From NCBI GenBank assembly GCA_964506935.1, contig CAZDOD010000028.1, forward strand, positions 1 through 22,104: a stretch of 22,104 nucleotides of DNA, read 5' to 3'. Shown here piece after piece: positions 3 to 20,080 of this stretch. The notes below the pieces were generated by a model. It had not been told where the DNA came from and ran no database searches. It was given only the letters and a program-made list of their open reading frames with translations. This stretch comes from an uncultured Thermodesulfobacteriota bacterium. GTDB taxonomy: Bacteria; Desulfobacterota; Zymogenia; Zymogenales; Zymogenaceae. Position numbers and translations under genes: made by a program. Within the stretch, counting starts at the first letter, position 1. Each line of letters opens with the position of its first letter.

Positions 3-3000
3 TTTGGTGCCCCGACAAAATTTTCGATTAAGTATCAGCTGAATTTTTTGGAGGACGGCGACAGAATACGCATCTTGACCCTAACGACAAAAGATCAGCA
101 GCCCAGTGTGGCAGATGTCGGGATAAAGAGACTTTCCGTCGAGATTCGCCGTTCAGGTTCAAACTATTTCGAAATCTGGGGTTATGTCGACTCGGATGGG
201 ACATCATACTACTATGAATACTCTACTACCTCATGGACGTCCAACGGGACGGACTTCGTCAGGACAATTACTCCGGATTCGTGGTATGTCCAAATCGTTA
301 CGATCCACCCCGGAACCCAGAAAATAGAGCTTTCGACCGAGGATGTATCGAGCGGGAATGTCCGCACGGCACAGACAAACAACAAGATCTACAGGGACGG
401 AGATGACTGGTGGTGGTATCTGGGCGATGTATTTACCAACATTCATTTCGGCAGACTAAAGCTCGACTACATCTATGTCGAGGATATAAAAAAGAGGTGT
501 CACTGGTCTGCTCTCAACTCCTTTACTTCTGACGGGAGGATAAAGAGCGGATTTGACGGTTCTTATGTCACAGCCGTAAATGATCTTACGATAAGGTACC
601 GGGGGTCTTACACCGTAAAAAACGACATCCTATCTTTTGTGCCTCTGAGGGATTCTTTTTCTGTCCTAAACGATATCGGGAGGCGGGATACTACCTCTGT
701 CTCTTACTCGCATCAGATATTTCTCGATGGAGAAGATTTATCATCTGCCGTCGAAAAATGGGAGGTCAGCTACGATGAGGACTGGTTTACAAAGCGTGTG
801 AGCATAACATTGAGGGAAAATTCCATCCTTCGAGAAAAATCCCCCTATTTTTTTGGAGACGAGAATTTTTACGATCCCAGGATAGAAGTTTTTGTCGACG
901 AGGAATCGATCGGGCAGTTTTACTGGGAGAATTCCGGAGAAGAGATAAAAAGCGGGGATTATCAAAGCGATATCAACGGAAGGAGCAAGACAGCCCTTTT
1001 GGATAGACCTTTCTCCGAGTTGATAACAAAGTCCTTCTCTGAGGATATCTCCAAGAGAGAACTTGTTGAAGACCTCGCCTTGACAGTTCCGGTTCTGTGG
1101 AAAATCACAGATACGATTATTCCCGCAAGTACCTACAGCGTAAGAGAATCATCTCCGATCGAGATAATCAGGGAGGTGGTGGAATCGGGGGGTGGGAGGC
1201 TTTATTCAGATAATGAGGACAACCTCATAATCGACTATAAGGATTATGAGACAGAAGGAAAAGGCCCTGCACTTTCTCTGCGTACATCTGATGTCATCCA
1301 GACAGGTTATGAGCTCAGTATCCCCACAGGAGAGAATTCGGTCGATGTGGAGGGCTATGATGATGAGGAGGCATACGGGAGGTGGCCGGTGGTTCGGCTC
1401 TTCGCATCCAAGTCGAGCCTCAAATCAGACGGTCACGATTCTCTTGTCCTTACGGCGTGGTGCTATAACCCTAATGGGGATCTCAACGATGTAGAGGAGA
1501 TAATAGATGAGCAGAGGACTCCGTCAGATCCACACACGATCAGCACCGAAAAGACGATAAAGCGGGTAATAGGGATCTGGGAAGACGATATGGGATCCCA
1601 CGGTGATCTAATTGAAGGCCCATATGAAGTGGAGGGATCAAGGATCACGACGAAAGGCGATATGGCGAACATCTTACATCTCATCTCCTATGTGGGGGGT
1701 GATACGTGTTCGTTCTCCGTAGACCATCTTGCTGATGTGGAGGAGCCCGATGTCCTGATTGAAGGTGGTGTGGCCCGGACGACTTTAAGGGCGTCATCCG
1801 GCGGCGGTGGATTCATAACCGTCACGGCTACATTCCGTGGTCAGACCGATTCATTGGTAATAACCTTGGCGGATCCAAAGATAGGTTCAATCGATGGATG
1901 GGCCGATCCGACAAAAATAGCGAGAGGCCAGACCTCTACCATCACATGTCGGGTCGCAAATCCCGACGGCGATCCTGTAGAGGACGGCACGCCGGTCCAT
2001 TTTAAGTTGATTGAAGGTAGGGGAGTGATCGCCGCTGATGAAGAGACCGGAAAAATATATATAGAGTATGGTCTGACCAGCGAGGAAGCAACTTCAACAA
2101 CCGGCACAGAAGAGATAGCTGGCGAGGAAATTATATCTTCAACCGAGATAAACCTCTCAGTTAAGTTTCCGGTATCTAGCCTGATTTCCATCTATCGTAT
2201 CGTGGATGGTGAGCCTTATACGGACGTAAACTATGCAGACGGTGCAACTTTTACGGGGAATAAGGTCACACTTGATAAGACGCTCCCGGCGAGCAAGACC
2301 AAGGTTTCGGTAACCTATAAGTCGGGCGGTATAGCAAAGGTGTATTATTGCGCCCCCAAAGTGGATATCACTGAACCCGTAGAGCTCAGGAATCCTTTTA
2401 CCAATTATATACGATGTCGGGCAGGAGGGGAGGATGATCTTGTGGAGGTTGATGTGGGGGCGGTTCTGATAAGTCAAAGCGGGGCGGAGAGAACCAAAGA
2501 TAAACTCAACTGGAATTGGGTATATTTTCCGGGTCCCGAAAAGGATATTTGGGGCAACTTTGTTGCATCCGATTCCGAGTTGTTTCATGAAGAAAAAGAG
2601 GAGATACCTTACAAATCAGGATACGAGATCGAGTTTGATAACGAATCGACGGCAACGAGGCACGAAAACTGCAGGACATACTTAAAGGACATAAATGAGA
2701 AAAACAATTATATAGTCTGTGAAGTTGAGGGTAGAAGGATTCTTGTTTCAATCGATGAGATGGCCGGGGATAAAGTCAAAGGCATCAGGTATGTGAAGGA
2801 GGAGAATACCGAAAAACCAATTGAGGGGGCGACGGTGAAGATCGATTGGGACGGCGATGGGTACGATGCCGAGGACCCCGAAGATGAGACGCTAATTACA
2901 AAGGAAGACGGCTCGTTTGAGTTCGTTAAGGGTGTGCCGGGGGAGAACAACATAAGGATAGAACATGACAATTACGAGCTCTGTGATGGAATAATAGCAA

Positions 3001-3098
3001 TACCCGTTGAAGTTGGGAAGAACGGCAGCGCACCATACTATGAATATAGGCCTGTAGAGTATTACGCGGAAGTGAGATGGAGGTATGTAAAAAAATGA
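3..3098 (+). CDS. large phage tail-fibre / host-specificity-like structural protein (possibly a surface adhesin). It has Ig-like (Big-type) and carboxypeptidase-regulatory-like beta-sandwich segments. It is probably 5'-truncated by the window edge.
   Basis: The 1016-aa ORF 48..3098 is open in frame back to nt 3 with no upstream stop. The first in-window start candidate is TTG at 48 with no Shine-Dalgarno, so the gene probably begins upstream of the window. The Big-like segment is ...TSTITCRVANPDGDPVEDGTPVHFKLIEG... near residue 640. The CarboxypepD_reg-like segment is ...GATVKIDWDGDGYDAEDPEDETLITKEDGSFEFVKGVPGENNIRIEH... near the C-terminus. The protein is Ser/Thr/Asp/Gly-rich. It is followed by ATGA-coupled small ORFs and a lysis cassette, as in phage late operons. 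Confidence 0.6.
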   Translation, partial: FGAPTKFSIKYQLNFLEDGDRIRILTLTTKDQQPSVADVGIKRLSVEIRRSGSNYFEIWGYVDSDGTSYYYEYSTTSWTSNGTDFVRTITPDSWYVQIVTIHPGTQKIELSTEDVSSGNVRTAQTNNKIYRDGDDWWWYLGDVFTNIHFGRLKLDYIYVEDIKKRCHWSALNSFTSDGRIKSGFDGSYVTAVNDLTIRYRGSYTVKNDILSFVPLRDSFSVLNDIGRRDTTSVSYSHQIFLDGEDLSSAVEKWEVSYDEDWFTKRVSITLRENSILREKSPYFFGDENFYDPRIEVFVDEESIGQFYWENSGEEIKSGDYQSDINGRSKTALLDRPFSELITKSFSEDISKRELVEDLALTVPVLWKITDTIIPASTYSVRESSPIEIIREVVESGGGRLYSDNEDNLIIDYKDYETEGKGPALSLRTSDVIQTGYELSIPTGENSVDVEGYDDEEAYGRWPVVRLFASKSSLKSDGHDSLVLTAWCYNPNGDLNDVEEIIDEQRTPSDPHTISTEKTIKRVIGIWEDDMGSHGDLIEGPYEVEGSRITTKGDMANILHLISYVGGDTCSFSVDHLADVEEPDVLIEGGVARTTLRASSGGGGFITVTATFRGQTDSLVITLADPKIGSIDGWADPTKIARGQTSTITCRVANPDGDPVEDGTPVHFKLIEGRGVIAADEETGKIYIEYGLTSEEATSTTGTEEIAGEEIISSTEINLSVKFPVSSLISIYRIVDGEPYTDVNYADGATFTGNKVTLDKTLPASKTKVSVTYKSGGIAKVYYCAPKVDITEPVELRNPFTNYIRCRAGGEDDLVEVDVGAVLISQSGAERTKDKLNWNWVYFPGPEKDIWGNFVASDSELFHEEKEEIPYKSGYEIEFDNESTATRHENCRTYLKDINEKNNYIVCEVEGRRILVSIDEMAGDKVKGIRYVKEENTEKPIEGATVKIDWDGDGYDAEDPEDETLITKEDGSFEFVKGVPGENNIRIEHDNYELCDGIIAIPVEVGKNGSAPYYEYRPVEYYAEVRWRYVKK

Positions 3099-3451
3099 GC
3101 ATACATGTTATCTGTAAATACGATACCGGCGATAGACCCATGGAGGCGATCTCAGATAGCCTCATTATTACTGAAGGGGAGGCAAGAGAAAGAGGATACG
3201 CCGAGCTCAACCTCCGATGGAAGGTGAAATCGGTATATGATTTCAACATACCCTTCCCCGAGGGCGGACATATCTTAAGGCCGGGGCTCTTTGTTCGGAT
3301 CACATGTCCGGAGTTGGGTCTGTTGGCAGAAGACTTCTATATCGCAAAGATTACACTTTCGGGTGATGTAAGTGGTGTCATGATGAGGCTCGTTTGTGAA
3401 AATTATCAAGACTGGGAAGAAGAAGGCCAGGTACCGGACGAGGAGGAATAG
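3095..3451 (+). CDS. hypothetical small protein (118 aa) with an acidic C-terminus, translationally coupled to the upstream structural gene
   Basis: The listed ORF 3077..3451 has an in-frame ATG at 3095 that forms an ATGA overlap with the stop of the upstream gene (TGA 3096-3098), which is typical translational coupling. No recognisable motif was found. The C-terminus is ...EEEGQVPDEEE. Confidence 0.45.
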   Translation: MSIHVICKYDTGDRPMEAISDSLIITEGEARERGYAELNLRWKVKSVYDFNIPFPEGGHILRPGLFVRITCPELGLLAEDFYIAKITLSGDVSGVMMRLVCENYQDWEEEGQVPDEEE

Positions 3452-3525: not shown

Positions 3526-3798
3526 ATGAAATTCACAAATTTAGTGAGGGACATTGCGAGGAGGGAGGCCGTTGACAATTTCGTCACAGGGAGAATCACC
3601 TCGAAAGACTACAGGGGTAAGTTCACTGTGGAGATATGGGGGGGACTCGAGATAAAGGCATATAACGCCGGGGGGCAGGATATTGCGGTCGGCGATGCCG
3701 TTGCTGTAAGACTGATAGACGGTAATATCAACAAGGCCGAGATTGCGGGAAAGACCGCGAGAAAGACGGGCGACAGAAAGGTCGTCTTCTGGAGGTGA
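3526..3798 (+). CDS. hypothetical small protein (90 aa)
   Basis: ORF 3526..3798 is preceded by the purine-rich stretch aaagagag. Its stop TGA at 3796-3798 overlaps the starts of the next gene. It shares orientation and tight spacing with the flanking phage-like genes. Confidence 0.45.
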   Translation: MKFTNLVRDIARREAVDNFVTGRITSKDYRGKFTVEIWGGLEIKAYNAGGQDIAVGDAVAVRLIDGNINKAEIAGKTARKTGDRKVVFWR

Positions 3799-4022
3799 TG
3801 ATGGAAGGGAACGAAGACGGAAGCCGTATAAAGGCGGCGGAATTTCGCGGAATGATGCTTGAGCGGACGGAGATCATCTTAAAGGAGTTGGCTTCGCTAA
3901 AAATCACGGTCGAGGATCACACCAAGAGCATTGAGCGTTTGAAGATAAAGGCGTCTCTCTGGGGTTTTCTGGCCGGTTCTATCCCCGGGCTCCTGACGGC
4001 CTTGATTTTACTTTTGAGGTGA
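3798..4022 (+). CDS. XhlA-like small membrane protein with an N-terminal coiled-coil and a single C-terminal TM helix; phage lysis-associated
   Basis: There are three consecutive start candidates: GTG 3795, ATG 3798 and ATG 3801. GGAGG at 3791-3795 gives the best spacing to the ATGs. The amphipathic N-terminal region is ...ILKELASLKITVEDHTKSIERLKIKAS... and the C-terminal hydrophobic helix is LWGFLAGSIPGLLTALILLL. It sits immediately upstream of the endolysin, whose SD (GAGGTGA) lies in its 3' end. Confidence 0.5.
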   Translation: MMEGNEDGSRIKAAEFRGMMLERTEIILKELASLKITVEDHTKSIERLKIKASLWGFLAGSIPGLLTALILLLR

Positions 4023-4026
4023 AGCG

Positions 4027-4476
4027 ATGCCGAAGATGACATCTGGTGACTGGAGGCTGATTCGAAATTTCTCACCGGGGGAGAATTGGGGTGATCCCTA
4101 TCAGATGGATCGGGACCTCATCTACCTCCTCGAAGTCCTCCGCGGGCTATTCTGGTTTCCATTTTCTATCCACTGCGGATATCAGAAGAGGCCCGAGAAA
4201 CCGAGTAGCCAACACAATTTCGGGAAGGCGTGTGACTTTCACGTCGACGGGATGCCCTTTTCCGGTGCCGTGGATTTGATGCTCATCTTCATAGGGCCAA
4301 GGCCTGGGGGAATCGGGGTCTCCGAAATCATCGGCCTCGGCATTTACCCCCACTGGAAAAATCCCGGCTTTCACATCGATACGAGGGGTGAAAAGGCGCG
4401 CTGGGGGGCGGTGATGAGCAAAGGGAAGCAGGTCTACGTCTCCTTTTCCGAGGCGTATCGGAAAATTGTGAGTTGA
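4027..4476 (+). CDS. peptidase M15 family (VanY / L-alanyl-D-glutamate peptidase-like) cell-wall hydrolase; a phage endolysin with no signal peptide
   Basis: The zinc-peptidase signature S-x-H-x-x-G-x-A-x-D is present as SQHNFGKACDF, followed by FHVD and a second GFHID motif. There is no N-terminal signal or TM segment, so export would depend on a holin. A strong SD, GAGGTGA, lies 5 nt upstream of the ATG. Confidence 0.8.
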   Translation: MPKMTSGDWRLIRNFSPGENWGDPYQMDRDLIYLLEVLRGLFWFPFSIHCGYQKRPEKPSSQHNFGKACDFHVDGMPFSGAVDLMLIFIGPRPGGIGVSEIIGLGIYPHWKNPGFHIDTRGEKARWGAVMSKGKQVYVSFSEAYRKIVS

Positions 4477-4477
4477 G

Positions 4478-4567
4478 ATGGTCGTTTCAGTAATATTCGC
4501 ATTTTTAATCGCCGTCATCTTCATAATAATCTTTCGCCATCTGGAAGATTCCGATGACCAAGGATAA
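4478..4567 (+). CDS. possible 29-aa single-TM micro-protein (MVVSVIFAFLIAVIFIIIFRHLEDSDDQG)
   Basis: An ATG lies 1 nt after the endolysin stop and opens an ORF that is almost entirely one hydrophobic helix. It is too short for the ORF track and has no clear SD. Its 3' end overlaps the start of the holin-like gene. Confidence 0.2.
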   Translation: MVVSVIFAFLIAVIFIIIFRHLEDSDDQG

Positions 4568-4802
4568 GGGGCGTCGGAGGGAAGGAAAATGGAGGATAGT
4601 CTTCGTCAAGGAGGACGGGACGATAAAGGGAGCATGGATTGCCACGGGTGTCACATTTCTTACCTTCGGGCTCTTTGGTGTGGGGGTATTTTGGGAAAGG
4701 GCCGCAGACAACCTCGAGAAATTCGGGATCTATCTCGCCAGCTCCTATTCAGTGACGATCGGGGCGTATTTGTTGAAAAAGTATAAGGAGGATGCAAGGT
4801 GA
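4554..4802 (+). CDS. holin-like small membrane protein with two TM helices (class II topology)
   Basis: The 82-aa product has a basic N-terminus (KDKGRRREGKWR) and two hydrophobic helices, AWIATGVTFLTFGLFGVGVFW and IYLASSYSVTIGAYLL, with a charged C-terminus. GGAAGA lies upstream of the ATG. The gene sits in a lysis cassette next to the endolysin. Confidence 0.55.
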   Translation: MTKDKGRRREGKWRIVFVKEDGTIKGAWIATGVTFLTFGLFGVGVFWERAADNLEKFGIYLASSYSVTIGAYLLKKYKEDAR

Positions 4803-5029
4803 AGGAGAAGATCAAGAAGTATCTCATCTGGGTATTGGTCTGTATCATTGTGATCTTATTGATTTACGGTTTTTTTCAAAAGAGGCGGGCCGATAAGATA
4901 ATCCACGAGTCTGAGATCGGAATAGACCTCGACGCCCAGGAGAGGATCGAAAGGGAGGTAATTCCAAAGGTGCTCGATGAAAAGACGACCGACGAATTGA
5001 GCCGAATGGGAGGTGTATTGTGGCAGTGA
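4799..5029 (+). CDS. small type-II (N-in, single N-terminal TM) membrane protein with a charged periplasmic tail; i-spanin-like or holin-accessory
   Basis: The GTG start at 4799 forms a GTGA overlap with the stop of the previous gene. The SD AAGGAGGA at 4785-4792 lies 6 nt upstream. The N-terminal helix is YLIWVLVCIIVILLIYGFF, followed by a highly charged region (ESEIGIDLDAQERIEREVIPK...). Confidence 0.5.
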   Translation: MKEKIKKYLIWVLVCIIVILLIYGFFQKRRADKIIHESEIGIDLDAQERIEREVIPKVLDEKTTDELSRMGGVLWQ

Positions 5030-5430
5030 GAAATTTGGGGTATCGAATAGTCGGGCCGATCTTTTTGAGCATTTCGCTTTTATTAATTTGTGGCTGTGCC
5101 ACGGTATCGCATGTCGTAAACCCCCCGCCGAGGGCGACCGATCTCCTCTACACTGAAGACGATGTGATGGATGTCATCGATGAGCTTTCAAAGGGTGAAA
5201 TAGGAGATGAGGACGCCGTGTATTTCGACGGAGAACGCTACTCCTTAAAATCCGGTGTCTATAAAAAGGCCGTAAAGGACGGTGTAGTAAAAAGGATCCA
5301 GGAGAAAAAGATCAGGGAGTTCATAACTGAATACGACCGCGAGACAATAGCTGACGCCGTAAAAAAAGACCTCGGAACGGCGGGGCTGATCGTATTGATC
5401 ATGGTGGTACTGGGGGTTTTGTTGTTGTAG
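5020..5430 (+). CDS. lipoprotein with a lipobox signal and an additional C-terminal TM helix; unimolecular-spanin-like topology
   Basis: The GTG start at 5020 follows the SD GGGAGGTG at 5008-5015 and overlaps the stop of the previous gene. The N-terminus ...LSISLLLICGC ATV fits the lipobox pattern, with cleavage before the second Cys. The extreme C-terminus AGLIVLIMVVLGVLLL forms a TM helix at the end of the protein. Confidence 0.55.
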   Translation: MAVRNLGYRIVGPIFLSISLLLICGCATVSHVVNPPPRATDLLYTEDDVMDVIDELSKGEIGDEDAVYFDGERYSLKSGVYKKAVKDGVVKRIQEKKIREFITEYDRETIADAVKKDLGTAGLIVLIMVVLGVLLL

Positions 5431-5606
5431 ATTGGTTTATATTTCCGCTTGGGTATGATAGTTAGTTGATTGAAATGAATTTATATGGCTGATATTATCA
5501 TTGGTAAGATTTTAAGAAGTTTAAATCTATACATAAAAGTATGAGTGAACCAACCGTAAAGTGCGAATGCCAAAGGTAAATTAAAAAATCTCAGCCGAAA
5601 AAGATA

Positions 5607-5642
5607 AGGGCCACTCAGACAGAAATCGGCGGCCCTTTTTTG
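5607..5642. terminator. rho-independent terminator, probably bidirectional
   Basis: The GC stem agggcc(5607-5612)...ggccct(5631-5636) is followed by TTTTTT(5636-5641) on the plus strand and preceded by aaaaag on the plus strand, which is a U-run on the minus strand. It lies between the convergent lysis cassette (+) and the RND permease (-, stop at 5710). Confidence 0.5.
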
Positions 5643-5709
5643 ATTTATCTCCATCTCTATTTAGAGAATCATCTTGTCCTTTCTGGACGCTATTTTTTCA
5701 AATAAATTA

Positions 5710-8700
5710 TCATTTCTTAAAAATCTTCTTCCTTATATCCTCTGCGATGATGTAAAGACACGGAATCACGATAAGGGTGAGTATCACCGCGAATGCCATC
5801 CCCCAAACGATAGATACTGCCATGGGGGTGAGCATTGGTTCTCTGCCGCCGATTCCTATCGCCATCGGGAGGAGACCGCCGATGGTAGTCAGGGTCGTCA
5901 GGAGAATCGGCCTCAGCCTTACCTTTCCCGTCTCAATGACGGCGTTGTATATATCCATACCCTTATCCCTCGCCCGGTTGATGAAATCCACCATTACGAT
6001 TGAATCGTTGACAACGATGCCGATGAGCGCAATAATTCCGATTCCCGCCATGAGCGAAAGCTCGACATTCATGATAAAGAGGCCAAAAACAACGCCTATG
6101 AAGGAGAAAGGTATCGTCACCATTATAATGAGGGGTTGGATGTATGATCTAAAAAGGGCCGCCAATATTATATAGATAAACAGAACAGCGGCAAAAAAGG
6201 CGCGAAGGAGTGAGAAGATCGACTCCATCGTGTCTTCATATTCACCGCCGTATTTAAAGGTGTAACCGGGATACTTATCACTCCTATATCCGAATGTCTC
6301 AATGAGGGCTTCGTTGACGATCTTTGATGTGGTCACACCCTCGATTATATTGGCCGATACCGAAATCGTGCGCTCACGGTCGGAATGATTAATCCTCAAC
6401 ATCCCGTCGCTGTATACGATATCCGCGAAGGCCTTTATGGGGATTCTGTCTCCGTTCCCGTTTTTAACGGAGAAGTTCAAAAGGTGATCGAGGTTTTTTA
6501 GGTCCTCGTCATATTTCACAATGATGTCTATTTTATCGGTGCCCCGTCTTATCGTTCCCGCATTGCTTCCCGAAAAGGCTGAACGAAGCTCTCCGGCGAC
6601 ATCAGAGACGCTCAGGCCCAGGGTTCCCATCTTGTATTCGTCGAACTCAAAACGTATTTCCTCTTTTCCCCTCTTATAATCATCTTCTATGTCCACTACA
6701 CCTTCAATGGATGCGAGCTTCTCTTTGAAATCATCCGCCAGCGCTAGAAGCGTCGAAAATTCATCCCCTTGGATGCTTACTTCAACCGCCGAGCCGCTGG
6801 AAGGCCCCCCGCGTTGCTCCCTGAATCCGATGGATGTTGGGCCGGCGATAAGATCGGTCTTTTTCCTGATATCGGCTGTGATCTTATCGGTACCGATCTT
6901 CTTATAGCCGTACTCGGTCAGTTCCGCACGGATTTCACCTGTATAAGAACTGACCGATGTGATGACCGCCTCTATCTCTTCCTTTGGAAGTCCGAGGATG
7001 ATCTCTTCCACCTCTTTGACCACTCTATCGGTTTCTTCGAGGTTCGAGTCCGTGGGAAGATTTATGCTCACCCTAAATTGCTCGGCGATTCCCCTCCCCA
7101 TAAAAACGAATTTCATGGTAAGGAGCCCAAAGACAATGGTTATAATCGCCAAACCGAAAAGACTGAAAAATACGAGATAGCGACGCTTCAATAAGACACC
7201 AAGTATATTCCCGTAGTAATTCCGAACAGGGATAAACCACGCTCGGGCCTCTTTGTAAATCTCGGCCCCCTTATCTTTAACAAATTCGTTAAGGTGTGAA
7301 GGGAGGACCAAAAACGCCTCCATCAGCGAAGCCAAAAATGTAACAATCACGACAACGGGTATCGCCTTCAGAAATTTACCGATAATTCCAGTCATAAAAA
7401 ACAGGGGGATGAATACTACGATATTGGTTGCTATCGAGGCGACCACGGGGAGAGCGACCTCGTCTGTGCCCAAGACGGCCGATTCAGCGAGTGAATATCC
7501 CATCTCACGATATCGGAAGAAGTTTTCTGACACTACTATGGCGTCATCAACAACAATTCCCAAGACAAGAATTAGGGCGAACATCGAAAGGAGGTTGAGG
7601 GTGATTCCCATGTAGCTCATGACAATGATCGTGAGGAGAAAAGAAAAAGGGATCCCCATTGCCGCCCAGAAGGCCACTCGCGAGTCAAGGAAGGCATAGA
7701 GGATTAATAGCACTAACATCATGCCGAAGGCCGCGTTTAAAAGAAGTGTCTTCTGTCTTTTCTCCACATATTTCGATGCATCATGAACCAGCGATATATT
7801 TATGCCTTCGTCAAGGGTTGCCGACTCTTTTTCTACAATTTTTCTTACCTCTTCGGCGATATCAATAACGTCTCCCGATGTGCTTTTAGTGACCCCAAGT
7901 GAAATGGCTCGATGTCCATTGAGCCTGCTTAAAGACTCTTCCTCCTCGAAGGTCTCGGTGACATCCGCCACATCGCCGACCCTTACGACCCCTTCGGGAT
8001 AAGAACGAACGATGATGTTTTTGATTTCATTCGCTTCATTGGTCTCTCCCATGGCCCTGATGAGGAGCTCTTTCGACCCCGAATCCACAGTTCCGCTGGG
8101 GATGTTTTTATTGCGCTGCTTGATGGCATTTATGATATCCGAAAGCTTGAGATTTGTCGCTTCGAGTCTCCTGGGGTCTGTCTCGACCCAGACCTCCCGA
8201 TCGAGGTATCCCCCCAGGTCTACTGAGCTGACACCCTTGATAAGTTTAATTTCATCTTTCAGGCGGTCAGCCGTATCCCGAAGCTCCTCCTGGGGCGCAT
8301 CACCCCAGATGCCGATCCTGATAACACTGAACCTCGGCTCCCGTTTTACTATATTCGGATCATTGGCGTCTTCGGGGAGGTCGGATACCTTATCGACCTC
8401 ACTCTTTATATCGTTGAGCAATTGATCGAGCTTCGTACCAACGATATCGGCTTCGGCCTTTATGTTGATGACCGAGACTCCTTCGGAGCTCTGTGAGCTG
8501 ATTTCTTCAATGCCGTCGATGTCGGAAATTTCTTCCTCGATGGGAATCGTGATTAGGTTTTCGACCTCTTCCGGCGAGGCGCCCGAGTATGTGGTGGTGA
8601 TGATGATATATCCGAAGTCAACCGCGGGGAAGACCTCCCTGTTGAGCTTGGTTGCAAAGTAGATCCCCAGTACGATGACGCCGACGGTGATCATATTGAC

Positions 8701-9828: not shown

Positions 9829-11163
9829 TTACAGGTCTGACCCCGAAGTATCATCCTCTCCTGTGAGGGGAGCCTTCCCTATTATCTTATCGAGCCTCGC
9901 AAGGGCCTCAGTGTAATTGAATATCGAATCGAGATAATTGATATTCGCCTCGGTAACCGCAAGCTGGGCATCGAGGAGTTCCAAGAGCGTCCCCACGCCG
10001 TTGTCGTAGCGGATCTGGGCCGTCTTGAGGTTTTCCTTTGCCATCTCGACGTTGTACTCCAGTGCCTCGATGATCCCCCTCGCCTCGACCAGATCATAAT
10101 AGGCGTCTTTGATATCAAGCTTTACGGTCTGGGTGGTATCCGAGGCAGAGATCTTTGCCTGTTCATATTGTGCCTTTGCCTGTTTCTTTTTCGCCGCGGC
10201 GACGAGGATATCTGAGATCGGAATATCAATCATTATGCCGGCGGTGAACTCCCAATCCCGGTTATCAAAGCTGATGCCGAGCTCATCGGTTGTGTAATCG
10301 TAATTTGCAAAGGCGTTTATCGTGGGGAAGAAGTTCCCGGTTGCGAGATTCACATTCTTTTTTGCGACGCTCTCATTCAATCTCGATATCTTGAGTTCGG
10401 GGCTTGAGCCTTCCGCCGCCAGGAGATACTCGTCCACGCTCACATCGGTCTGTGTATAGGCTAGCTCCCCCTCTATCTCGATAGATTCATTAAGATCGAT
10501 CCCCAGTAGCTTTTTCAGGGTCTCGTAGGCGGTTGCGAGGTCGTTTTCGGCCCTGATGTAAGAGGGTTTGGCGTTGGCAAGCTCGACCTCAATGCGCATC
10601 AGGTCATATTTAGGGACGAGGCCGTCGTAATATTTATTTTTTGTCATCTCGACATTTTTGGCAAGTAACGCCAATTCTTCCGACCTCATTTCAATTTCCT
10701 TTTTTGCCAGAAGTATATTATAGAAGGCGACCTTCGTATTATACAGGGCATCGCTTACCGCGAGGCGGTACTGTTCATACGAGATCTCGCGCTGGAGATA
10801 GGCGATATTCAGCCCCGATATGACTTTTCCCCCCGAAAACAGGGGGATCGATGCGGTGAGATCGTAATCGTATTGCTCGAAAGACGCCGATCCACCTGAG
10901 AAGGACATCGGTTCTCGATACGTATATCCCGCCCCGGCGCCTACAGAGAGTATGCTCGACCACTCTTCAAAGACCACCCCCTTGAGGCGGTTAATCTCTT
11001 CTGCGGCGATTAATATCTCGGGGGACTGTCTCATTGCGATGTGGATACATTCATCGAGGGTATATGTGAATGTCGGCCTTTCTTCCTCGGCGAAAAGCGT
11101 GGTATTTAAGAAAACAAAAAGGGGTAGAAATATGACGAGTTTTTTTAAGATATCTAATTTCAT
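9829..11163 (-). CDS. TolC-family outer membrane efflux protein (OMF)
   Basis: The 444-aa product has an N-terminal signal peptide (MKLDILKKLVIFLPLFVFLNTTLFA) and two tandem OEP repeats with long coiled-coil segments. It is the first gene of the tripartite efflux operon. Confidence 0.85.
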   Translation of the reverse strand: MKLDILKKLVIFLPLFVFLNTTLFAEEERPTFTYTLDECIHIAMRQSPEILIAAEEINRLKGVVFEEWSSILSVGAGAGYTYREPMSFSGGSASFEQYDYDLTASIPLFSGGKVISGLNIAYLQREISYEQYRLAVSDALYNTKVAFYNILLAKKEIEMRSEELALLAKNVEMTKNKYYDGLVPKYDLMRIEVELANAKPSYIRAENDLATAYETLKKLLGIDLNESIEIEGELAYTQTDVSVDEYLLAAEGSSPELKISRLNESVAKKNVNLATGNFFPTINAFANYDYTTDELGISFDNRDWEFTAGIMIDIPISDILVAAAKKKQAKAQYEQAKISASDTTQTVKLDIKDAYYDLVEARGIIEALEYNVEMAKENLKTAQIRYDNGVGTLLELLDAQLAVTEANINYLDSIFNYTEALARLDKIIGKAPLTGEDDTSGSDL

Positions 11164-11395
11164 CGAAAAATTCCCAAAGATAGATTAGAAAATCGAAAAA
11201 AGGGTAATTAAAATTCTGTTCTAGGTCTATATTAACAATAAAATCGAATAAATCCTTCTAGAAAAATCGACCATCAAGTGGTCTTTTTTAATTTTTCCGC
11301 CTGTATTATAGGGAGTATTAAGTTAAAGGGCAACCACCCCACCTCTCGGTATCGTCTTCAATCTAACAGGTGAAAAGCTAATTTACCTAAAGTCT

Positions 11396-11424
11396 TTGAC
11401 TTTTGCAATCTGTATCTGTAGTAT
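11396..11424 (+). promoter_or_regulatory. sigma-70-type promoter for the amidohydrolase gene
   Basis: TTGACT (11396-11401), a 17-nt spacer, then TAGTAT (11419-11424). It sits about 50 nt upstream of the ATG at 11475 in the divergent intergenic region shared with the efflux operon. Confidence 0.5.
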
Positions 11425-11474
11425 GAAATCGATATAAAGGGATATTATCCAATAATTACGAAAGGGGACTTATT

Positions 11475-13004
11475 ATGGATAAGCCGAAAAACGGATTGGA
11501 GACAGGCGATCTCTTAAAACTCGAGGATGTAAAGATCTTGAGGAGGGAGTTTCTCCTGTCAAGCTGCGGGGCGGCGGCCGCCTTTCTTTTGGCGGGGGTA
11601 TTGCCTTCGGGCTGTGTCGATACGGGAAGGATAGCTTCTTTGGAGCCCGCAAAAAAGGCGCTTTATAATTTACTTTTGTTCGACGGGATCGAAAACCGCC
11701 TCAAGAAAGACATCGTGCTCCTGATAGATGGCGATGTGATCTCGGCCGTCGAGACCGGTTGGAATCAGGAGCGTTATCCTGATTATGCACCCATTGACCT
11801 TGGTGGCATGACGCTGATCCCCGGGCTCATAGACAACCACGTCCACGTCACCGTCCCGTTTGTCCGCGAGCCGACGTTTGCGGCGATAACGGGTACAAAC
11901 GACCAGATCGAGAGGAACCTGGCGAGCTGTATCCTGTCGGGCGTGACGACCGTCAGGGACGTGGGGGCGTTTCCGAGAAAGGTCCAGAATTTTCGGGACA
12001 AGATCAATCAGGGGAGGCTAATCGGCCCCAGGATACTCACTACAAACTCCTTCATCTCGACCCCCACCGGCCCGCCGGAGGGCGTTGTGCACCTGAGTCT
12101 GCCCGCCGAGTTATTGATGGGGGGCCAGTTCGTCGAGAGGATCACAACGCCGGAAGAGGTCAGGGCCGTTGCAAATGAGATGTGCGACCTAGGCGCCGAC
12201 TGGTTAAAGACCGGGCATCAATCTATCTCATATATCTTCTGGTCGGAGCCGACCGTCCCGAGCGACGAGTATCTCAGGGCGCTTCTGGAGGTCGGTGAAA
12301 AGCGGGGGAAAAAGATCTGTATGCACCAGCCGTTCCTGTCAGGTTTCGCCAAGGGGGTGGAGATGGGGATCCACACACTCGAGCACTGCCCCAATGACGG
12401 GCTGATCCCATACGACCAGATAGAGACCTTTATGAAGAAGGGGATGGCGATACTCCCCACGATGATGGCTTTCGGCGACGAGTTCGAGATGGACGATATT
12501 CGGGTATGGATCAAGGAAAACGGCCACAAGTATCTCGAAGAGGAGCCGCTCCGCCAGGTAATCGAATCAATCGAGGTGAGGTGTCAGGAGCCGTATCCGC
12601 CCGCCGATTATCTTGAGAAGGGCTATTATGACTATGAGTTGATGATGCCGATGTTTCCGAACTTGGTAAAGAACGTCTCGAGATTGAGGCAGATGGGCGC
12701 AAGGGTCGGCGTCGGGACCGATCTCGGCGGGACGATGGTGGGATTTTTCGGGCTGTATCACAGGGAGTTGAAACACCTCAAAAATGCCGGATTTTCGAAC
12801 TTCGAGATACTCAGAAACGCCACCGCGACAAACGCCGAAATCATAGACATGGGAGACAAGATCGGGACGATAGAGGCGGGAAAATTAGCCGACATAGTGG
12901 CGGTCAAAGGAAATCCCCTGTCGGATATCAACGCAATGAAAGACGTCAAGATGGTAATGAAGGGGGGAGTCTTTATGCTTGACCATCGAGTTGAGAGTAT
13001 GTGA
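11475..13004 (+). CDS. amidohydrolase-family metal-dependent hydrolase with an N-terminal twin-arginine (Tat) signal
   Basis: The 509-aa product carries the Tat motif RREFLL followed by the h-region AAAAFLLAGVL. The amidohydrolase metal-binding motif ...LIDNHVHV... (H-x-H) is present, with later His/Asp ligands (...GIHTLEHC..., ...GVGTDLGG...). Confidence 0.85.
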   Translation: MDKPKNGLETGDLLKLEDVKILRREFLLSSCGAAAAFLLAGVLPSGCVDTGRIASLEPAKKALYNLLLFDGIENRLKKDIVLLIDGDVISAVETGWNQERYPDYAPIDLGGMTLIPGLIDNHVHVTVPFVREPTFAAITGTNDQIERNLASCILSGVTTVRDVGAFPRKVQNFRDKINQGRLIGPRILTTNSFISTPTGPPEGVVHLSLPAELLMGGQFVERITTPEEVRAVANEMCDLGADWLKTGHQSISYIFWSEPTVPSDEYLRALLEVGEKRGKKICMHQPFLSGFAKGVEMGIHTLEHCPNDGLIPYDQIETFMKKGMAILPTMMAFGDEFEMDDIRVWIKENGHKYLEEEPLRQVIESIEVRCQEPYPPADYLEKGYYDYELMMPMFPNLVKNVSRLRQMGARVGVGTDLGGTMVGFFGLYHRELKHLKNAGFSNFEILRNATATNAEIIDMGDKIGTIEAGKLADIVAVKGNPLSDINAMKDVKMVMKGGVFMLDHRVESM

Positions 13005-13041
13005 GTTGATAAAAGATTACAAAAAAATATTGATAAAAGAT

Positions 13042-13064
13042 GGCCCGCCTTTTTAAGGCGGGCC
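13042..13064. terminator. bidirectional rho-independent terminator between convergent genes
   Basis: A perfect 8-bp GC stem, ggcccgcc / ggcgggcc, encloses the loop tttttaa. It is flanked by A/T-rich runs on both sides. It lies between the amidohydrolase stop (13004, +) and the glnA stop (13192, -). Confidence 0.55.
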
Positions 13065-13191
13065 GAAGTTTTCTACGACCTTCGGTTTTTGGTTACAAGT
13101 GTCTTTTGATCGATATTCAACCTGAATCAACTTGGCCCGAAGAAAAACAGGATTTTCAATTACAACAAAGCCCACGGTGAACGCTATAAGT

Positions 13192-14520
13192 CTACATGAT
13201 CGGGAGATAGTTTTCGATCTCGTACCGGCTTACGTGAGTCCTGAATCGATCCCATTCGATCTTTTTGTTTTCGATGAATTTATTGAAGATGTGTTCCCCC
13301 AGGGCTTCTTTTACAAGTTCACTCTTCTCAAGCTCCGATACCGCCTCGTAGAGGTTCCCCGGCAGTTCAATGATGCCCCGATCCCTCCTCTTTTCCGGAG
13401 AAAACTCATAGACGTCCTCTTCGATCGGGGATGGAATTTCGTACCCTTCCTCGATCCCCTTTAGGCCAGCGGCCAGCATCACCGAAAATGCGAGATATGG
13501 ATTGCAGGCGGGGTCGGGAGACCGGAACTCAATCCTCGTTGCCTTCTCCTTTCCGGGCTTATACTGGGGGACCCTGACCATCGTCGACCTGTTTCGCCTC
13601 GCCCAGCTTACGTAGACCGGGGCCTCGTAACCCGGAACGAGCCTCTTGTAAGAGTTCACCCACTGGTTGCATATTGCGGTCATCTCCCTCGCATGCTTTA
13701 GTATCCCTGCGATGTACCCCTTGGCGTCCTGTGAGAGGTTGAGCGGATCGGAGGGGTCATGGAATGCGTTTCTTTCGCCTTTGAAGAGCGACTGATGTGT
13801 GTGCATTCCGCTCCCGTTGATACCGAAGATCGGCTTGGGCATGAAGGTGGCGTAAAATCCGTGCTGGCGCGCTATCTCCTTTACCGTCACCCTGAGCGTT
13901 GTGAATTTATCGGCCATCCTCAATGCCTCGTCGTAGCGCAAGTCGATCTCGTGCTGGCTCGGTGCGACCTCGTGGTGACTGTACTCGATATCGATCCCGA
14001 ATTTCTGCAGGGCGAAGATCGTCTCCCTCCTTAATATTCCAGCGAGATCCAAGGGGGGTGCGTCGAAATATCCGCCTTCGTCTAAGACCTTCGGCTCCTT
14101 GTTGTCGGCGAAGTAGAAGAATTCGGGTTCGGGACCGACATAAAACGTATACCCCTTATCCTTTGCCTTTTGGATCGCCCTTTTTAGGGCATACCTCGGA
14201 TCGCCCTTGTAGGGGCTTCCATCGGGCTCAAGAATATCACAGAACATCCGCGCAACCGGTTTTTCTTCGTCACGCCACGGGAGGAGCTCAAGGCTCGCCG
14301 GATCGGGTTTTGCGATCATGTCGCTCTCTTCTATCCTGGCGAATCCCTCGATCGACGAACCGTCAAATCCCATTCCTTCGGAGAGCGCCTCCTCCATTTC
14401 TCCGGGTGTGACCGCAAAGCTTTTCAGAATACCGAGGATATCGGTGAACCAGAACTGAACGAAGCTTACATTCCTCTCTTTGATGAGCGATAAAACATCT
14501 CTTTTTGTGTTTGCTAACAT
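13192..14520 (-). CDS. glnA: glutamine synthetase type I
   Basis: The product has the GS beta-grasp N-terminal domain (...VLSLIKERNVSFVQFWFTDILG...) and the catalytic domain (...GSGMHTHQSLF..., ...RVPQYKPG...). The listed ORF begins at 14562 (MFFSFKKRKETGKEM...), but the ATG at 14520 (MLANTKRD...) follows the purine-rich stretch GAAAGGAAACAGGAAAGGAA. It also gives the N-terminal length expected from GlnA alignments, so 14520 is preferred; 14562 remains possible. Confidence 0.9.
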   Translation of the reverse strand: MLANTKRDVLSLIKERNVSFVQFWFTDILGILKSFAVTPGEMEEALSEGMGFDGSSIEGFARIEESDMIAKPDPASLELLPWRDEEKPVARMFCDILEPDGSPYKGDPRYALKRAIQKAKDKGYTFYVGPEPEFFYFADNKEPKVLDEGGYFDAPPLDLAGILRRETIFALQKFGIDIEYSHHEVAPSQHEIDLRYDEALRMADKFTTLRVTVKEIARQHGFYATFMPKPIFGINGSGMHTHQSLFKGERNAFHDPSDPLNLSQDAKGYIAGILKHAREMTAICNQWVNSYKRLVPGYEAPVYVSWARRNRSTMVRVPQYKPGKEKATRIEFRSPDPACNPYLAFSVMLAAGLKGIEEGYEIPSPIEEDVYEFSPEKRRDRGIIELPGNLYEAVSELEKSELVKEALGEHIFNKFIENKKIEWDRFRTHVSRYEIENYLPIM

Positions 14521-14636
14521 TTCCTTTCCTGTTTCCTTTCTTTTTTTAAAACTAAAAAACATGTTTTTTGTTTTGGCTTCTCAAAAACCTCCTCAAATAG
14601 ATGTGTTGCCCAAAAAATTATGGGAGGTTTTTACTT

Positions 14637-15923
14637 TTAGTTGACCTTCTTCTTTGAGAGTATCTCCGTGATATCCAATCCTGTAGCACTTTTGATACCC
14701 TCAAAAAACGCCGATGTTGCACCTGTTATCCCCTTTACATAAGCGGGGATTCCGTTTCCGTCACCGCCGTCGAGGATGGTGACTTTATCGATCTGGAGGT
14801 TGTCTTTGATGACGCTCGTGACCTTGTCGATGATGTATGGGAGCTGCTGAATTAGATAAAGCTCTCGAGTCTCCTCCTTTTCCCACTCCTCGCGTAACGC
14901 CTTGATTGCCTCGGCCATTGCCTTTCCGTCCTCAACGATTTGTGCGGCTTCTCCCTTCGCAAGCAAAAGCGACGCCTCTTTCTGCGCCCGGGCGGGGATG
15001 ATGGTCTCCGCCTCGTATTTCTTCTGGTTCTTCTTTATGCGGGCGTCTTCGAGCTTTGCCTCTTCGGTTACCTTTGAGATCTCGGTTGCAACGAGTGCCT
15101 TCGATTCGGCGGTGTTGACGTTGGTGGCAAGCTCTGCCATTTTGATTTTCATTTTGTTCTCGGCCTCGATAACGGCGATGTCGGATTCGTACTCCGCCAC
15201 ACTCCCCTTCTTTTTTGCCTCCGCCGCAACTACGCGGGCTTCGGCTTCCGACTCCGATTCGGAAATGAGGGCATCACGCTTGACTTCGGCGCTTCTCTTC
15301 CTCCCGATGTTTTCGAGATAACCGGTGTTGTCGGAAATCTTCTTTATCTTGAAGGTATCCAATACCAGGCCCAGCTTTTTTAGATCTTTTTGCGCCTCGT
15401 CAGAGACCTTTGCCGCAAAATCGATCCTCTTTTCGTTCGCATCTTCCGGAGTCAGTGTTGAGAGGACACCACGAAGACTACCCTCAATTGTGTGCTTGGC
15501 AACCTGAGAGATATCCGTTACGTTCCTTCCCAAGAACCTCTCTATGGCGTTTGTGATCCCTTCGGTCTCTGTACCCGCTATTTTCACGTTTGCCGATGCC
15601 TCGACATCCAATGGGATGAGCCCTTTTGTGAGGGTACCCAAAAGCTCCATGTCGAGCGGTATTATGTTCAGAGACATTCGAGAGACCGATTCGACTATAG
15701 GTATCTTGAGTCCCCTTCCACCCTTGATGACCCGGTAGCCCACGATTGTCCCGTCTTTTAGCCTTCGCTTTTTGCCGGAAAAGATCAAGAGCTCATTCGG
15801 GGGGGCGATAACAAGGTTGACCTTGATGAATGTCAAGATTAAAGCCACAAGAATAACTCCCACCGCAATAAGGACACCTATTTTATCTGGAGAGAGTTCC
15901 ATAGTTATACCTCCTAATTCCAT
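14637..15923 (-). CDS. flotillin / SPFH (band-7) domain membrane protein, YqiK/FloT-like
   Basis: The 428-aa product has an N-terminal TM helix (IGVLIAVGVILVALILTF), an SPFH domain, and then a long Ala/Glu/Lys-rich coiled-coil (...EAEARVVAAEAKKKGSVAEYE...EEAKLEDARIKKNQKKYEAE...). Two in-frame ATGs at 15923 and 15902 are each preceded by AGGAGG. Confidence 0.85.
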   Translation of the reverse strand: MELGGITMELSPDKIGVLIAVGVILVALILTFIKVNLVIAPPNELLIFSGKKRRLKDGTIVGYRVIKGGRGLKIPIVESVSRMSLNIIPLDMELLGTLTKGLIPLDVEASANVKIAGTETEGITNAIERFLGRNVTDISQVAKHTIEGSLRGVLSTLTPEDANEKRIDFAAKVSDEAQKDLKKLGLVLDTFKIKKISDNTGYLENIGRKRSAEVKRDALISESESEAEARVVAAEAKKKGSVAEYESDIAVIEAENKMKIKMAELATNVNTAESKALVATEISKVTEEAKLEDARIKKNQKKYEAETIIPARAQKEASLLLAKGEAAQIVEDGKAMAEAIKALREEWEKEETRELYLIQQLPYIIDKVTSVIKDNLQIDKVTILDGGDGNGIPAYVKGITGATSAFFEGIKSATGLDITEILSKKKVN

Positions 15924-15957
15924 GTTTAAACCTCCTTTATGTTCACTGTCCGATTTA

Positions 15958-16299
15958 CTATCCGATGGCCTGTCTCCCCCTCTCTCCCGTCCTTATTCGG
16001 ACGACCTGGGGGAGATCGAGGACAAAGATTTTTCCATCACCTATGTTTCCCGTTCGGGCGCCTTTTATGATGGCATCGATGGTCGGCTCGACATACTCTT
16101 CGTTTACGGCTATTTCGAGCCTTATCTTCTTCAATAGATTGATCTCTTTTGGAATACCTCGATAAGTCTCTGTATAGCCCATCTGCCTCCCGGCACCGAG
16201 AGCGGTGCTTACCGTCATCAGATATATCTCGTTTTCATAAAGCGCCTTTTTGACGTCGGGGAGTCTTTGGGGCTGTATAATGGCAACAACAAGTTTCAT
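15958..16299 (-). CDS. glnK: P-II nitrogen regulatory protein (GlnB/GlnK family)
   Basis: The 113-aa product aligns along its full length with P-II ([10 protein letters not shown]...MTVS...G.GRQ.G.TE.YRG...KIFV.D...IRTGE). It lies 18 nt downstream of amt on the same strand. The T-loop reads [16 protein letters not shown], with neither Tyr51 nor Ser49. Confidence 0.9.
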
Positions 16300-16317
16300 A
16301 CACTTTCCTCCTATCTA

Positions 16318-17808: not shown

Positions 17809-17861
17809 AGATCCCTCCATTTCGAAATTGGCAAAAGAGTTTCAGTTTGCTCCTATATAGA

Positions 17862-17877
17862 GCAAATTTGTTGCCAA
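17862..17877 (-). promoter_or_regulatory. sigma-54 (-24/-12) promoter directing transcription toward amt
   Basis: The minus strand reads cTTGGCAACAAATTTGCTc. This is TGGCAA-N5-TTGCT against the consensus TGGCAC-N5-TTGCW, with the GG and GC doublets 10 nt apart. It lies about 55 nt upstream of the amt start and about 100-140 nt downstream of palindromic candidate enhancer sites. A GAFTGA-containing sigma-54 activator is encoded immediately upstream. Confidence 0.65.
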
Positions 17878-17974
17878 GATTTACAAGCCTTGCGAGTAAG
17901 GCTGTAAGCTATTGAAATTAAAGGGATTTTTATGTTGGGGCTATGGAGTATGAAGGGACAATAGGTTCATAAAG

Positions 17975-18018
17975 CCTACATATTGGTAGGAAATAACTAT
18001 AAAAGCTACCTTTTGGTA
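17975..18018. promoter_or_regulatory. composite palindromic element: CCTAC-N6-GTAGG (17975-17990), a 16-nt spacer, then TACC-TTTT-GGTA (18007-18018). Candidate enhancer/UAS for the amt sigma-54 promoter.
   Basis: Two dyad-symmetric motifs are read directly. The same two motifs recur at 19587-19630 with an identical 16-nt spacing and mirrored order. The element lies 100-155 bp upstream of the -24/-12 promoter, the canonical position for enhancer-binding-protein sites. The second motif overlaps the activator gene's stop codon. Confidence 0.45.
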
Positions 18019-19568: not shown

Positions 19569-19586
19569 TGGTATCTTTCTTGAAAG

Positions 19587-19630
19587 TACCTTTTGGTATG
19601 ATTATTGTCCAAAACCTACGATATTGTAGG
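19587..19630. promoter_or_regulatory. second copy of the composite palindromic element: TACC-TTTT-GGTA (19587-19598), a 16-nt spacer, then CCTAC-N6-GTAGG (19615-19630). It lies immediately upstream of the activator gene start and is a candidate autoregulatory operator.
   Basis: The 12-mer TACCTTTTGGTA is identical to 18007-18018. The CCTAC-N6-GTAGG arms are identical to 17975-17990. The spacing is 16 nt in both copies. It sits 19-62 nt upstream of the activator ATG (19568, minus strand). Confidence 0.45.
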
Positions 19631-20080
19631 ATATCAAAAGGCTTTTGTCAATAGCTTTGTTGAGAGGTTGTCGTTATAGAAAAATCAGAGTTTGATAGAT
19701 AGAAGATGGTCTTCTCTAAAGATGGCTTTTTATAAAGTAAAGGCCAAAATGAAAACCGTAATCTAAAATAGGGAAAGCATACAATTCATCGGAAATATAA
19801 TATATCAGGGGATGACTTCGATTACAATTTAATATTGGAAAATGACACATTAAGTGATATATTCGAATATTGGTCTGGCTTCCTTAAGATGGTAACCATT
19901 AAAAAAGTCCCTAGAGGTTATCAGCTTTTTGCCTGTGATCTTTTGATATTGAAGCCGGAATATTTACATGGGGCTATAGATAAACCTATCGGATATGATG
20001 AAAAAATACAGGATATATCGGTGCCGTGATGTGTACCATGAAGATATCTGATTTTCCTATTTGCTTTACGGGGTGTTGAA

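Follow-up and report, generated by a model that had tools for sequence, protein, structure and literature searches.

The stretch of DNA analysed here, referred to as the window, is the whole 22,104-nucleotide (nt) stretch of contig CAZDOD010000028.1 (assembly GCA_964506935.1), from an uncultured Thermodesulfobacteriota bacterium of sulfate-reducer type. It carries six small open reading frames (ORFs) for proteins of 75, 149, 29, 82, 76 and 136 amino acids (aa), whose junctions overlap or abut (Table 1). The initial annotation had read this region as a prophage lysis cassette in a diderm host, made up of tightly packed genes for an XhlA-like protein, a peptidase M15 hydrolase without secretion signal, a 29-residue transmembrane (TM) micro-protein, a holin-like protein with two TM helices, a type II membrane protein and, last, a protein that combines a lipobox with a terminal TM helix, which is the topology of a unimolecular spanin (u-spanin). 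All six genes, with their coordinates and junctions, were found as described there, and we propose that they form a genuine lysis cassette with a new variant of spanin. This proposal builds on gene structure, conservation, purifying selection, a catalytic motif, a predicted fold class, topology signals and a pattern of gene co-occurrence, all of which are established here, while the functions of the proteins are deduced from sequence.

Table 1. Genes of the proposed lysis cassette and of the phage region preceding it (coordinates refer to the window)
Feature	Position	Strand	Characteristics and basis
Cassette of six ORFs	3795-5430	+	
75-aa tail-anchored protein	3795-4022	+	Coiled-coil-like N-terminal region; C-terminal TM helix 57-75 (hydropathy)
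149-aa soluble M15/LAS-type zinc peptidase (DUF882/M15A-like), putative endolysin	4027-4476	+	Motif, profile, model
29-aa single-TM micro-protein with acidic tail	4478-4567	+	Residues 1-24 almost purely hydrophobic
82-aa holin-like protein	4554-4802	+	Two hydrophobic segments, ~27-47 and ~57-74; basic C-terminal tail KKYKEDAR
76-aa protein with basic N-terminus	4799-5029	+	One N-terminal TM helix (about 8-27; hydrophobic stretch 4-29); hydropathy, alignment A10
136-aa protein with lipoprotein signal and C-terminal TM helix, last gene of the element	5020-5430	+	Lipobox and hydropathy
1016-aa upstream tail protein	48-3098		Tail-protein PHROG 6079 (1e-11); C-terminal CarboxypepD_reg-like domain
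124-aa upstream protein	3077-3451		Weak baseplate-hub PHROG match
Conserved 90-aa protein, no assigned role	3526-3798		Always precedes the lysis genes

At the 5' end of the cassette, GTG/ATG starts at 3795, 3798 and 3801 overlap the upstream TGA (3796-3798); further downstream, the stop of the 82-aa gene and the start of the 76-aa gene share AAGGTGAAGG at 4799, and the two GTG starts of the 136-aa gene (5020 and 5026) overlap the TGA of the 76-aa gene (5027-5029). When the window was compared with its closest relatives (loci L011 and L009, with about 82% DNA identity), the ratio of nonsynonymous to synonymous changes (pN/pS) lay at 0.12-0.37 in all ORFs tested, that of 29 aa among them, indicating that the cassette is under purifying selection and ruling out a decaying pseudogene block. 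Hydrophobic segments and motifs were throughout taken from simple hydropathy (Kyte-Doolittle, KD) and pattern analysis.

The cassette recurs at no fewer than 12 independent loci from metagenomes or metagenome-assembled genomes (MAGs), always 3' of a block of tail genes and before host genes. The loci that share the gene order are L001/2, L003/4, L005/6, L008/L022, L009, L011, L012, L013, L020, L021, L023 and L025, together with two JGI/Logan contigs. In these relatives, a large tail-fibre-like protein is followed by a 107-136-aa protein, in places by a Lys-rich protein of 51-55 aa whose gene is absent from the window, and by a 90-aa protein; then come a 71-78-aa coiled-coil/TM protein, a peptidase of 147-167 aa, one or two small proteins with two TM helices, a 76-90-aa protein with an N-terminal transmembrane domain (TMD), a 127-150-aa lipoprotein with a TMD, and finally unrelated host genes. 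Named relatives are a 'Deltaproteobacteria bacterium' MAG (GCA_016929395.1), a Candidatus Zymogenus MAG and an uncultured Thermodesulfobacteriota MAG. The flank of the window encodes an efflux system of AcrB, membrane-fusion and outer-membrane-factor proteins (AcrB/MFP/OEP) adjacent to the cassette, and the host is therefore a diderm. The end of a tail module, the efflux operon next door and the affiliation of the related MAGs thus bear out the reading as a prophage lysis cassette in a diderm host.

The 149-aa protein is the putative endolysin of the cassette. The predicted SxHxxGxAxD motif is present as S61-Q-H63-N-F-G-K-A-C-D70, and hydropathy revealed no N-terminal hydrophobic segment, neither a signal sequence nor a signal-anchor-release (SAR) segment, as the initial annotation had stated. 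Six residues (H63, D70, H72, H109, H116 and D118) are invariant in the 16 members of the endolysin family, among them the putative metal ligands H63, D70 and H116, so that the zinc-ligand pattern H-x6-D...H is present and invariant in all 16 sequences. These ligands lie within SxHxxGxAxD and GFHxDxR motifs, as they do in M15/LAS peptidases such as the YcbK/MepK-type DUF882 proteins (PF05951), Peptidase_M15_3 (PF08291), 1lbu, LysB4 and ChiX, which also provide the best matches of the predicted fold: for a model obtained with AlphaFold2 (AF2) at a predicted local distance difference test score (pLDDT) of 90.6, the top Foldseek matches in the PDB, though weak, were the Streptomyces albus Zn DD-peptidase 1lbu, hedgehog N-domains, LysB4, ChiX, VanY and LdcB, all of them of the LAS fold. 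The window protein matches the 'endolysin' PHROG 894 at 5e-8. In Pfam, the M15 assignment holds at the level of the family, with matches to Peptidase_M15_2/DUF882 at E<=1 in 14 of the 16 members (best 4.7e-5) and to Peptidase_M15_3 in 8 of 16, but the window protein itself, with E=0.2 for Peptidase_M15_2, stays below the gathering scores, a point in which it differs from established M15/LAS peptidases. It forms a single compact domain and has neither a cell-wall-binding domain nor a signal peptide. Its relatives form 15 clusters, whose contigs share the gene order of the cassette. Taken together, motif and model point to a divergent M15/LAS peptidase without signal or SAR domain, which would act as the endolysin.

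The protein that heads the cassette resembles XhlA of PBSX-like prophages (PF10779) in several respects: both have about 70-80 residues, a coiled-coil-like N-terminus and a Trp before the C-terminal TM helix, and both are encoded by the first gene after the tail-fibre block. The order of what follows is different, as Firmicute phages have XhlA, holin and endolysin, whereas here the 75-aa gene is followed directly by the endolysin gene and the holin slot lies downstream. Homology to XhlA, which the term 'XhlA-like' had suggested, is not supported. The window protein does not match PF10779 at E<=10, the best value in its family is E=2.6, reached by two of 31 members, and none of the 65 relatives collected by profile search has a Pfam domain; a profile-profile alignment (hhalign) of the family with genuine XhlA gave 22% probability over 11 TM columns. 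As positive controls, the annotated XhlA/'hemolysin'/XpaF1 genes of Geobacillus virus E2, Bacillus phage Carmel_SA and Parageobacillus phage NIIg3.2 yielded proteins that match PF10779 at 1e-18 to 4e-11. What remains of the likeness is therefore architecture and position.

The 75-aa gene is located immediately 5' of the endolysin gene in all close loci and is the best-conserved gene of the set, with 61-93% identity compared to 53-89% for the endolysin. Its real start is probably the ATG at 3798 or 3801, because a GGAGG is found at 3791-3795 and the relatives are 71-74 aa long. We detected no similarity to this protein among 50,697 phage records and no relatives in IMG/VR; more distant members of the family occur in phage genomes, but not beside an endolysin gene. 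By analogy with XhlA of PBSX, the protein may serve as an accessory factor or regulator of the holin. On a 1.76-Mb contig (L013, positions 5001-5222), the corresponding gene lacks the C-terminal TM helix owing to an apparent frameshift (...PSLATVSSNDIQG*), whereas the other cassette genes are unimpaired. The copy may be decaying, or the frameshift may stem from a sequencing error.

The 82-aa protein occupies what we regard as the holin slot. The first of its two hydrophobic segments (27-47) is strongly hydrophobic, the second (~57-74) moderately so, with a KD value of ~1.3 that is below the scan threshold, and neither Pfam nor the PHROGs returned a match or a holin family for it. Homologues are found in L003, L009 and L011, while in L001, L008, L012 and L013 the gene is replaced by unrelated small proteins with two TM helices, with both flanks remaining constant. 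As such mosaic swapping between constant flanks is typical of holins, and given the small size, two predicted TMDs, charged tail and endolysin neighbourhood, the protein appears to be holin-like, perhaps of a class II-like kind. The earlier description as a two-TM holin-like protein agrees with size, predicted topology and slot mosaicism, with the qualification that its second segment is only moderately hydrophobic.

Between the endolysin gene and this slot lies the 29-aa ORF, the smallest of the proposed genes. It is intact in L011 and L009, where changes are mostly synonymous or conservative (for example an Arg codon alternating between CGC, AGG and AGA), with a pN/pS of 0.18-0.26, which rules out a chance ORF for this closest clade. 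It is absent from L001, L003, L008 and L012, loci that leave no room for it. The initial annotation had singled it out as a pure-TM micro-ORF, and we agree that it is a real coding sequence, although one that is restricted to a single clade and does not form a general part of the cassette. Its product is possibly a modulator of the holin.

The last gene encodes the 136-aa protein. Both predicted signals are present and family-wide: judged by regular expression and alignment, the lipobox reads ICGC, with Cys26 as the presumed lipidation site and Ala at +2, and the C-terminal hydrophobic stretch (116-136, mean KD 3.31) extends to the very end, so that the protein terminates inside its TM helix. 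In relatives, the lipobox appears as FSGC, LAGC, LGGC, GGC and similar variants, the +2 residue being A, S or G and never Asp, and lipobox and extreme C-terminal helix are kept in all full-length members, down to about 30% identity. The only cysteines of the window protein are residues 24 and 26, leaving a Cys-free periplasmic region of ~90 residues; most relatives are likewise Cys-free there, with one Cys each in P0087 and P0100. In the AF2 model, helices at 46-57 and 78-104 flank a small hairpin (67-76) and are followed by the TM helix (110-135). A Foldseek search of the model against BFVD returned noise only and no fold match.

Relatives of the 136-aa protein are not easily found. A word search retrieves only close ones, and when 1.84 billion representatives were scanned exhaustively with HMMER, just 15 clusters emerged at E<=1e-3; there were none in IMG/VR contigs or GTDB species representatives, and tblastn against the 50,697 phage records gave no match. 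In public annotation, this gene begins at the GTG at 5026 (P0016, 134 aa). In L001 (GCA_016929395.1, JAFGIX010000029.1), the last two genes are both intact in the DNA (5148-5429 and 5424-5807), but the public MAG annotation starts the type II gene at an internal TTG, giving a 48-aa product that has lost its TM helix, and leaves the lipoprotein gene uncalled, which is a typical annotation failure for spanins. The genes of this cassette are invisible to Pfam and PHROGs, a practical warning for annotators. In another locus (L025, 383-817), tandem repeats of SGAN type (SGANSGANSGANGGANSGA) have been inserted into the homologue, in the periplasmic loop that joins the first helix to the hairpin. This loop hence tolerates changes in length, which fits a spacer-like region.

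U-spanins are characterised by an outer-membrane lipoprotein signal together with a TMD at the C-terminus and are typically encoded by the last lysis gene, and none of the 58 that were surveyed has periplasmic cysteines (PMC6139136). The 136-aa protein displays each of these traits, i.e. a lipoprotein signal, a C-terminal TMD, no Cys in the periplasmic region and the last position in the cassette, and we therefore assign it u-spanin topology; its presumed activity would be disruption of the outer membrane. In the initial annotation this topology had been likened to that of phage T1 gp11 (AAP49988.1), and in outline the comparison is apt: the two proteins have 133 and 136 residues, about 90 of them periplasmic and free of Cys, an N-terminal lipoprotein signal with a residue other than Asp at +2, a single C-terminal TM helix, and genes that come last among the lysis genes. 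Beyond topology the likeness ends. Membership in the sequence family of T1 gp11 entails, for the periplasmic domain, >=40% identity that covers >=40% of its length, and a beta-rich structure, whereas hhalign aligned only 14 columns around the lipobox (40% probability), without similarity past it, and the 136-aa protein is predicted to be mainly helical where the T1 gp11 family is mostly beta (PMC6139136). Homology to T1 gp11 is thus ruled out. Moreover, T1 gp11 ends in ...FLIRKHEKKEA, with the basic tail RKHEKKEA following the helix, while the 136-aa protein has no such cytoplasmic tail; T1 uses a SAR endolysin and a pinholin instead of a soluble endolysin; and T1 has no small type II membrane protein, whereas the 136-aa family is always accompanied by one.

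This companion, the 76-aa protein, has ~48 Cys-free residues after its TMD, which are probably periplasmic, making it a candidate type II protein resembling an inner-membrane spanin subunit (i-spanin), with an orientation read from charge bias only. Residues Q47, E53, P56, G71 and L74 are conserved in alignment A10, and the pN/pS of the gene is 0.19-0.37. The initial annotation had asked what this protein does, and the question is a real one, as its gene is co-conserved with the lipoprotein gene: it lies upstream of the latter in every locus for which upstream DNA exists, whichever type of holin is present (the window and L003 have type A; L001, L008 and L012 have type B, accompanied or not by a GxxxG-rich protein). 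Even in L020 and L021, where an insert of ~450 nt that contains two small ORFs separates the pair, both genes are retained. The inserts (L020 551-983, L021 356-788) encode a 49-aa Gly/Lys-rich product and one of 58 aa with a zinc-ribbon-like CxxC...C pattern. Because the co-conservation is independent of the holin type, we consider the 76-aa protein a partner of the lipoprotein rather than of the holin.

The same pattern bears on the possibility that the 76-aa protein is an antiholin, a second holin or a regulator of lysis timing, with the lipoprotein acting alone as a u-spanin. Small proteins with a single TMD that are encoded beside holins are often timing factors, as exemplified by lambda S107/S105, P2 LysA and T4 RI, and the 76-aa gene does overlap the stop of the holin gene (GTGA at 4799). 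T1 gp11, furthermore, works without a partner (PMC6139136). An antiholin would, however, be expected to co-vary with its holin, but the 76-aa gene stays constant beside the lipoprotein gene while the holin changes, and we thus regard such a regulatory role as improbable.

If the two proteins belong together, the question arises how closely they depend on each other. In two-component spanins (2CS) such as lambda Rz/Rz1, P2 LysB/LysC and T4 PseT.3/PseT.2, the gene for a TMD protein is followed, after a slight overlap, by a lipoprotein gene at the end of the cassette. It is conceivable, though on balance rather unlikely, that the 76-aa and 136-aa proteins constitute an obligate two-component spanin of this kind, in which a short i-spanin is combined with a lipoprotein that takes the position of the outer-membrane subunit (o-spanin) but has its own inner-membrane anchor, and in which neither works alone. 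The gene order and the overlap of 4-10 nt match the overlapped/separated layout of 2CS (PMC6139136); the pair co-occurs at every locus with upstream DNA and diverges in parallel while the gene in the holin slot is exchanged independently; together, the periplasmic parts amount to ~140 residues, within the known 2CS range of 62-300; and both families show weak matches to 'Rz-like spanin' PHROGs. In addition, it has been suggested, without an example, that u-spanins arise from o-spanins when these acquire a C-terminal TMD (PMC6139136). Yet, unlike in known 2CS, the lipoprotein is the larger of the two partners and has a TMD of its own, its i-spanin-like partner contributes only ~48 periplasmic residues, and neither has a periplasmic Cys, whereas 2CS almost always have Cys (PMC6139136) and an o-spanin is recognised by periplasmic Cys and the lack of a TMD. 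The matches of the pair to 'Rz-like spanin', Cor and Sie families are all weak and non-significant, those to 'Rz-like spanin' probably reflecting the composition of TM segments or signal peptides, and with ~450 nt between the genes in L020 and L021, tight translational coupling is not required. We found no embedded or alternative-frame o-spanin in 4799-5430, where the ORFs in other frames (4792-4896 and 5013-5156) lack a lipoprotein signal. Generalised to the family, the idea would make a type II protein of 76-79 aa and a lipoprotein of 127-150 aa with its own inner-membrane anchor a heteromeric spanin, a living intermediate between 2CS and u-spanins; we put this forward as a tentative possibility that is more probably wrong than right.

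The reading that we favour, and consider probable, is a canonical pathway of holin, soluble endolysin and spanin, in which a lipoprotein of u-spanin type bridges the envelope together with a dedicated small inner-membrane partner. The 82-aa protein would act as the holin and permeabilise the inner membrane, allowing the cytoplasmic M15/LAS peptidase to exit through the lesions and to cut peptide stems or cross-links of the murein. The 136-aa protein would be exported, lipidated at Cys26 and, as there is no Asp at +2, sorted to the outer membrane, with its C-terminal helix staying in the inner membrane; it would thus bridge the envelope like a u-spanin and disrupt the outer membrane once the murein is gone. 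Its dedicated partner, the 76-aa protein, would most likely bind the membrane-proximal helical part, in the role of an i-spanin-like subunit or of a regulator, and the 75-aa protein and the clade-specific 29-aa peptide may be accessory membrane factors of holin or endolysin action. This reading and its alternatives overlap, and we infer all of the functional steps from sequence.

Several observations weigh against this pathway. For the endolysin, the window protein scores 11.8 bits against a Pfam cut-off of 27 (PF05951), the Foldseek matches are weak (best E=0.016, TM-scores ~0.3-0.4), and sequence and profile searches of the PDB gave no match. The 136-aa protein is similar to none of the known spanins, and its mostly helical AF2 model is of moderate confidence (pLDDT 71.7); were it compactly folded, its ~90 periplasmic residues may be too short to cross the periplasm. 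No basic cytoplasmic tail follows its C-terminal helix, so that stop-transfer anchoring is an assumption, and the charge bias across the TMD of the 76-aa protein is not decisive in one clade. An N-terminal lipid anchor combined with a C-terminal TMD is also found in proteins that reside wholly in the inner membrane, such as those of the EscJ/PrgK type.

The genomic setting must be considered as well, since the last two genes close the element and adjoin host DNA. The element itself appears to be a prophage or prophage-derived tail element, with the cassette closing its late (tail) operon next to an operon for resistance-nodulation-division (RND) efflux. Its right end is shared with a metagenomic contig: positions 4171-6340 of the window are colinear with L009 (1-2132) and L010 at 82.5% identity, from the end of the prophage across the spacer to the 3' end of the host AcrB-like gene, with 82-87% identity in the prophage genes, 89% in AcrB and 59% in the spacer. 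A relative that has clearly diverged therefore carries the element at the same chromosomal site, which suggests either long vertical inheritance (it might be a domesticated prophage or resemble a tailocin) or integration that is strictly site-specific. The spacer (5431-5709), which separates the last phage gene from the convergently oriented AcrB gene, is AT-rich and contains at ~5606-5641 a hairpin, GGGCCAC...GGCGGCCC, followed by TTTTTT, probably a terminator that is shared or bidirectional; its energy is -13.8 kcal/mol, its z-score only -1.6, and conservation in L009 is partial.

A position at the end of an element is typical of 'moron' genes, as illustrated by lambda bor, which adjoins Rz, and the last two genes might accordingly be morons for membrane proteins, such as a pair that excludes superinfecting phages or modifies the envelope, instead of lysis genes. 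Weak PHROG matches to Cor/Sie (E=0.0025 in two of 18 members; E=0.3) point the same way, as does the occupation of the same site in a relative at host-like divergence, which suggests long residence. These matches are non-significant, however, and both genes share the strand of the other cassette genes, their junctions overlap, Shine-Dalgarno-like sites are present, and neither promoter nor terminator lies between the holin gene and the pair; if they were morons, the cassette of a diderm host would be left without any other spanin candidate. We consider this explanation very unlikely. Past the efflux operon, at 9829-21715, the window carries a nitrogen-assimilation cluster unrelated to the cassette, with genes for an amidohydrolase, glutamine synthetase, an SPFH/Band 7 protein, an Amt ammonium transporter and a GAF-domain sigma-54 activator; next comes a flavin adenine dinucleotide (FAD) enzyme resembling glycerol-3-phosphate oxidase.

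Lysis cassettes, M15 endolysins and u-spanins are each already known. New are a u-spanin-type family that is a sequence orphan, predicted to be helical and tail-less, the i-spanin-like protein with which it is constantly paired, and, at the head of a diderm cassette, a protein that has the shape of XhlA but is not its homologue, which shows that accessory proteins of this shape occur in diderm cassettes in the absence of XhlA homology. With this cassette, the range of recognisable lysis systems comes to include prophages of uncultured Thermodesulfobacteriota, which have no relatives among cultured phages. Among u-spanins, T1 gp11 is the only one that has been studied, and a census in 2018 saw no link between u-spanins and two-component spanins (PMC6139136). 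Should the 76-aa and 136-aa proteins indeed form a hybrid pair, this would be the first helical (class-I-like) u-spanin, and it would lend direct support to an origin of u-spanins from o-spanins by C-terminal extension, so far a speculation (PMC6139136). The 136-aa family would allow a concrete test of this hypothesis, and it would offer a second, structurally different model of fusion proteins that bridge the cell envelope.

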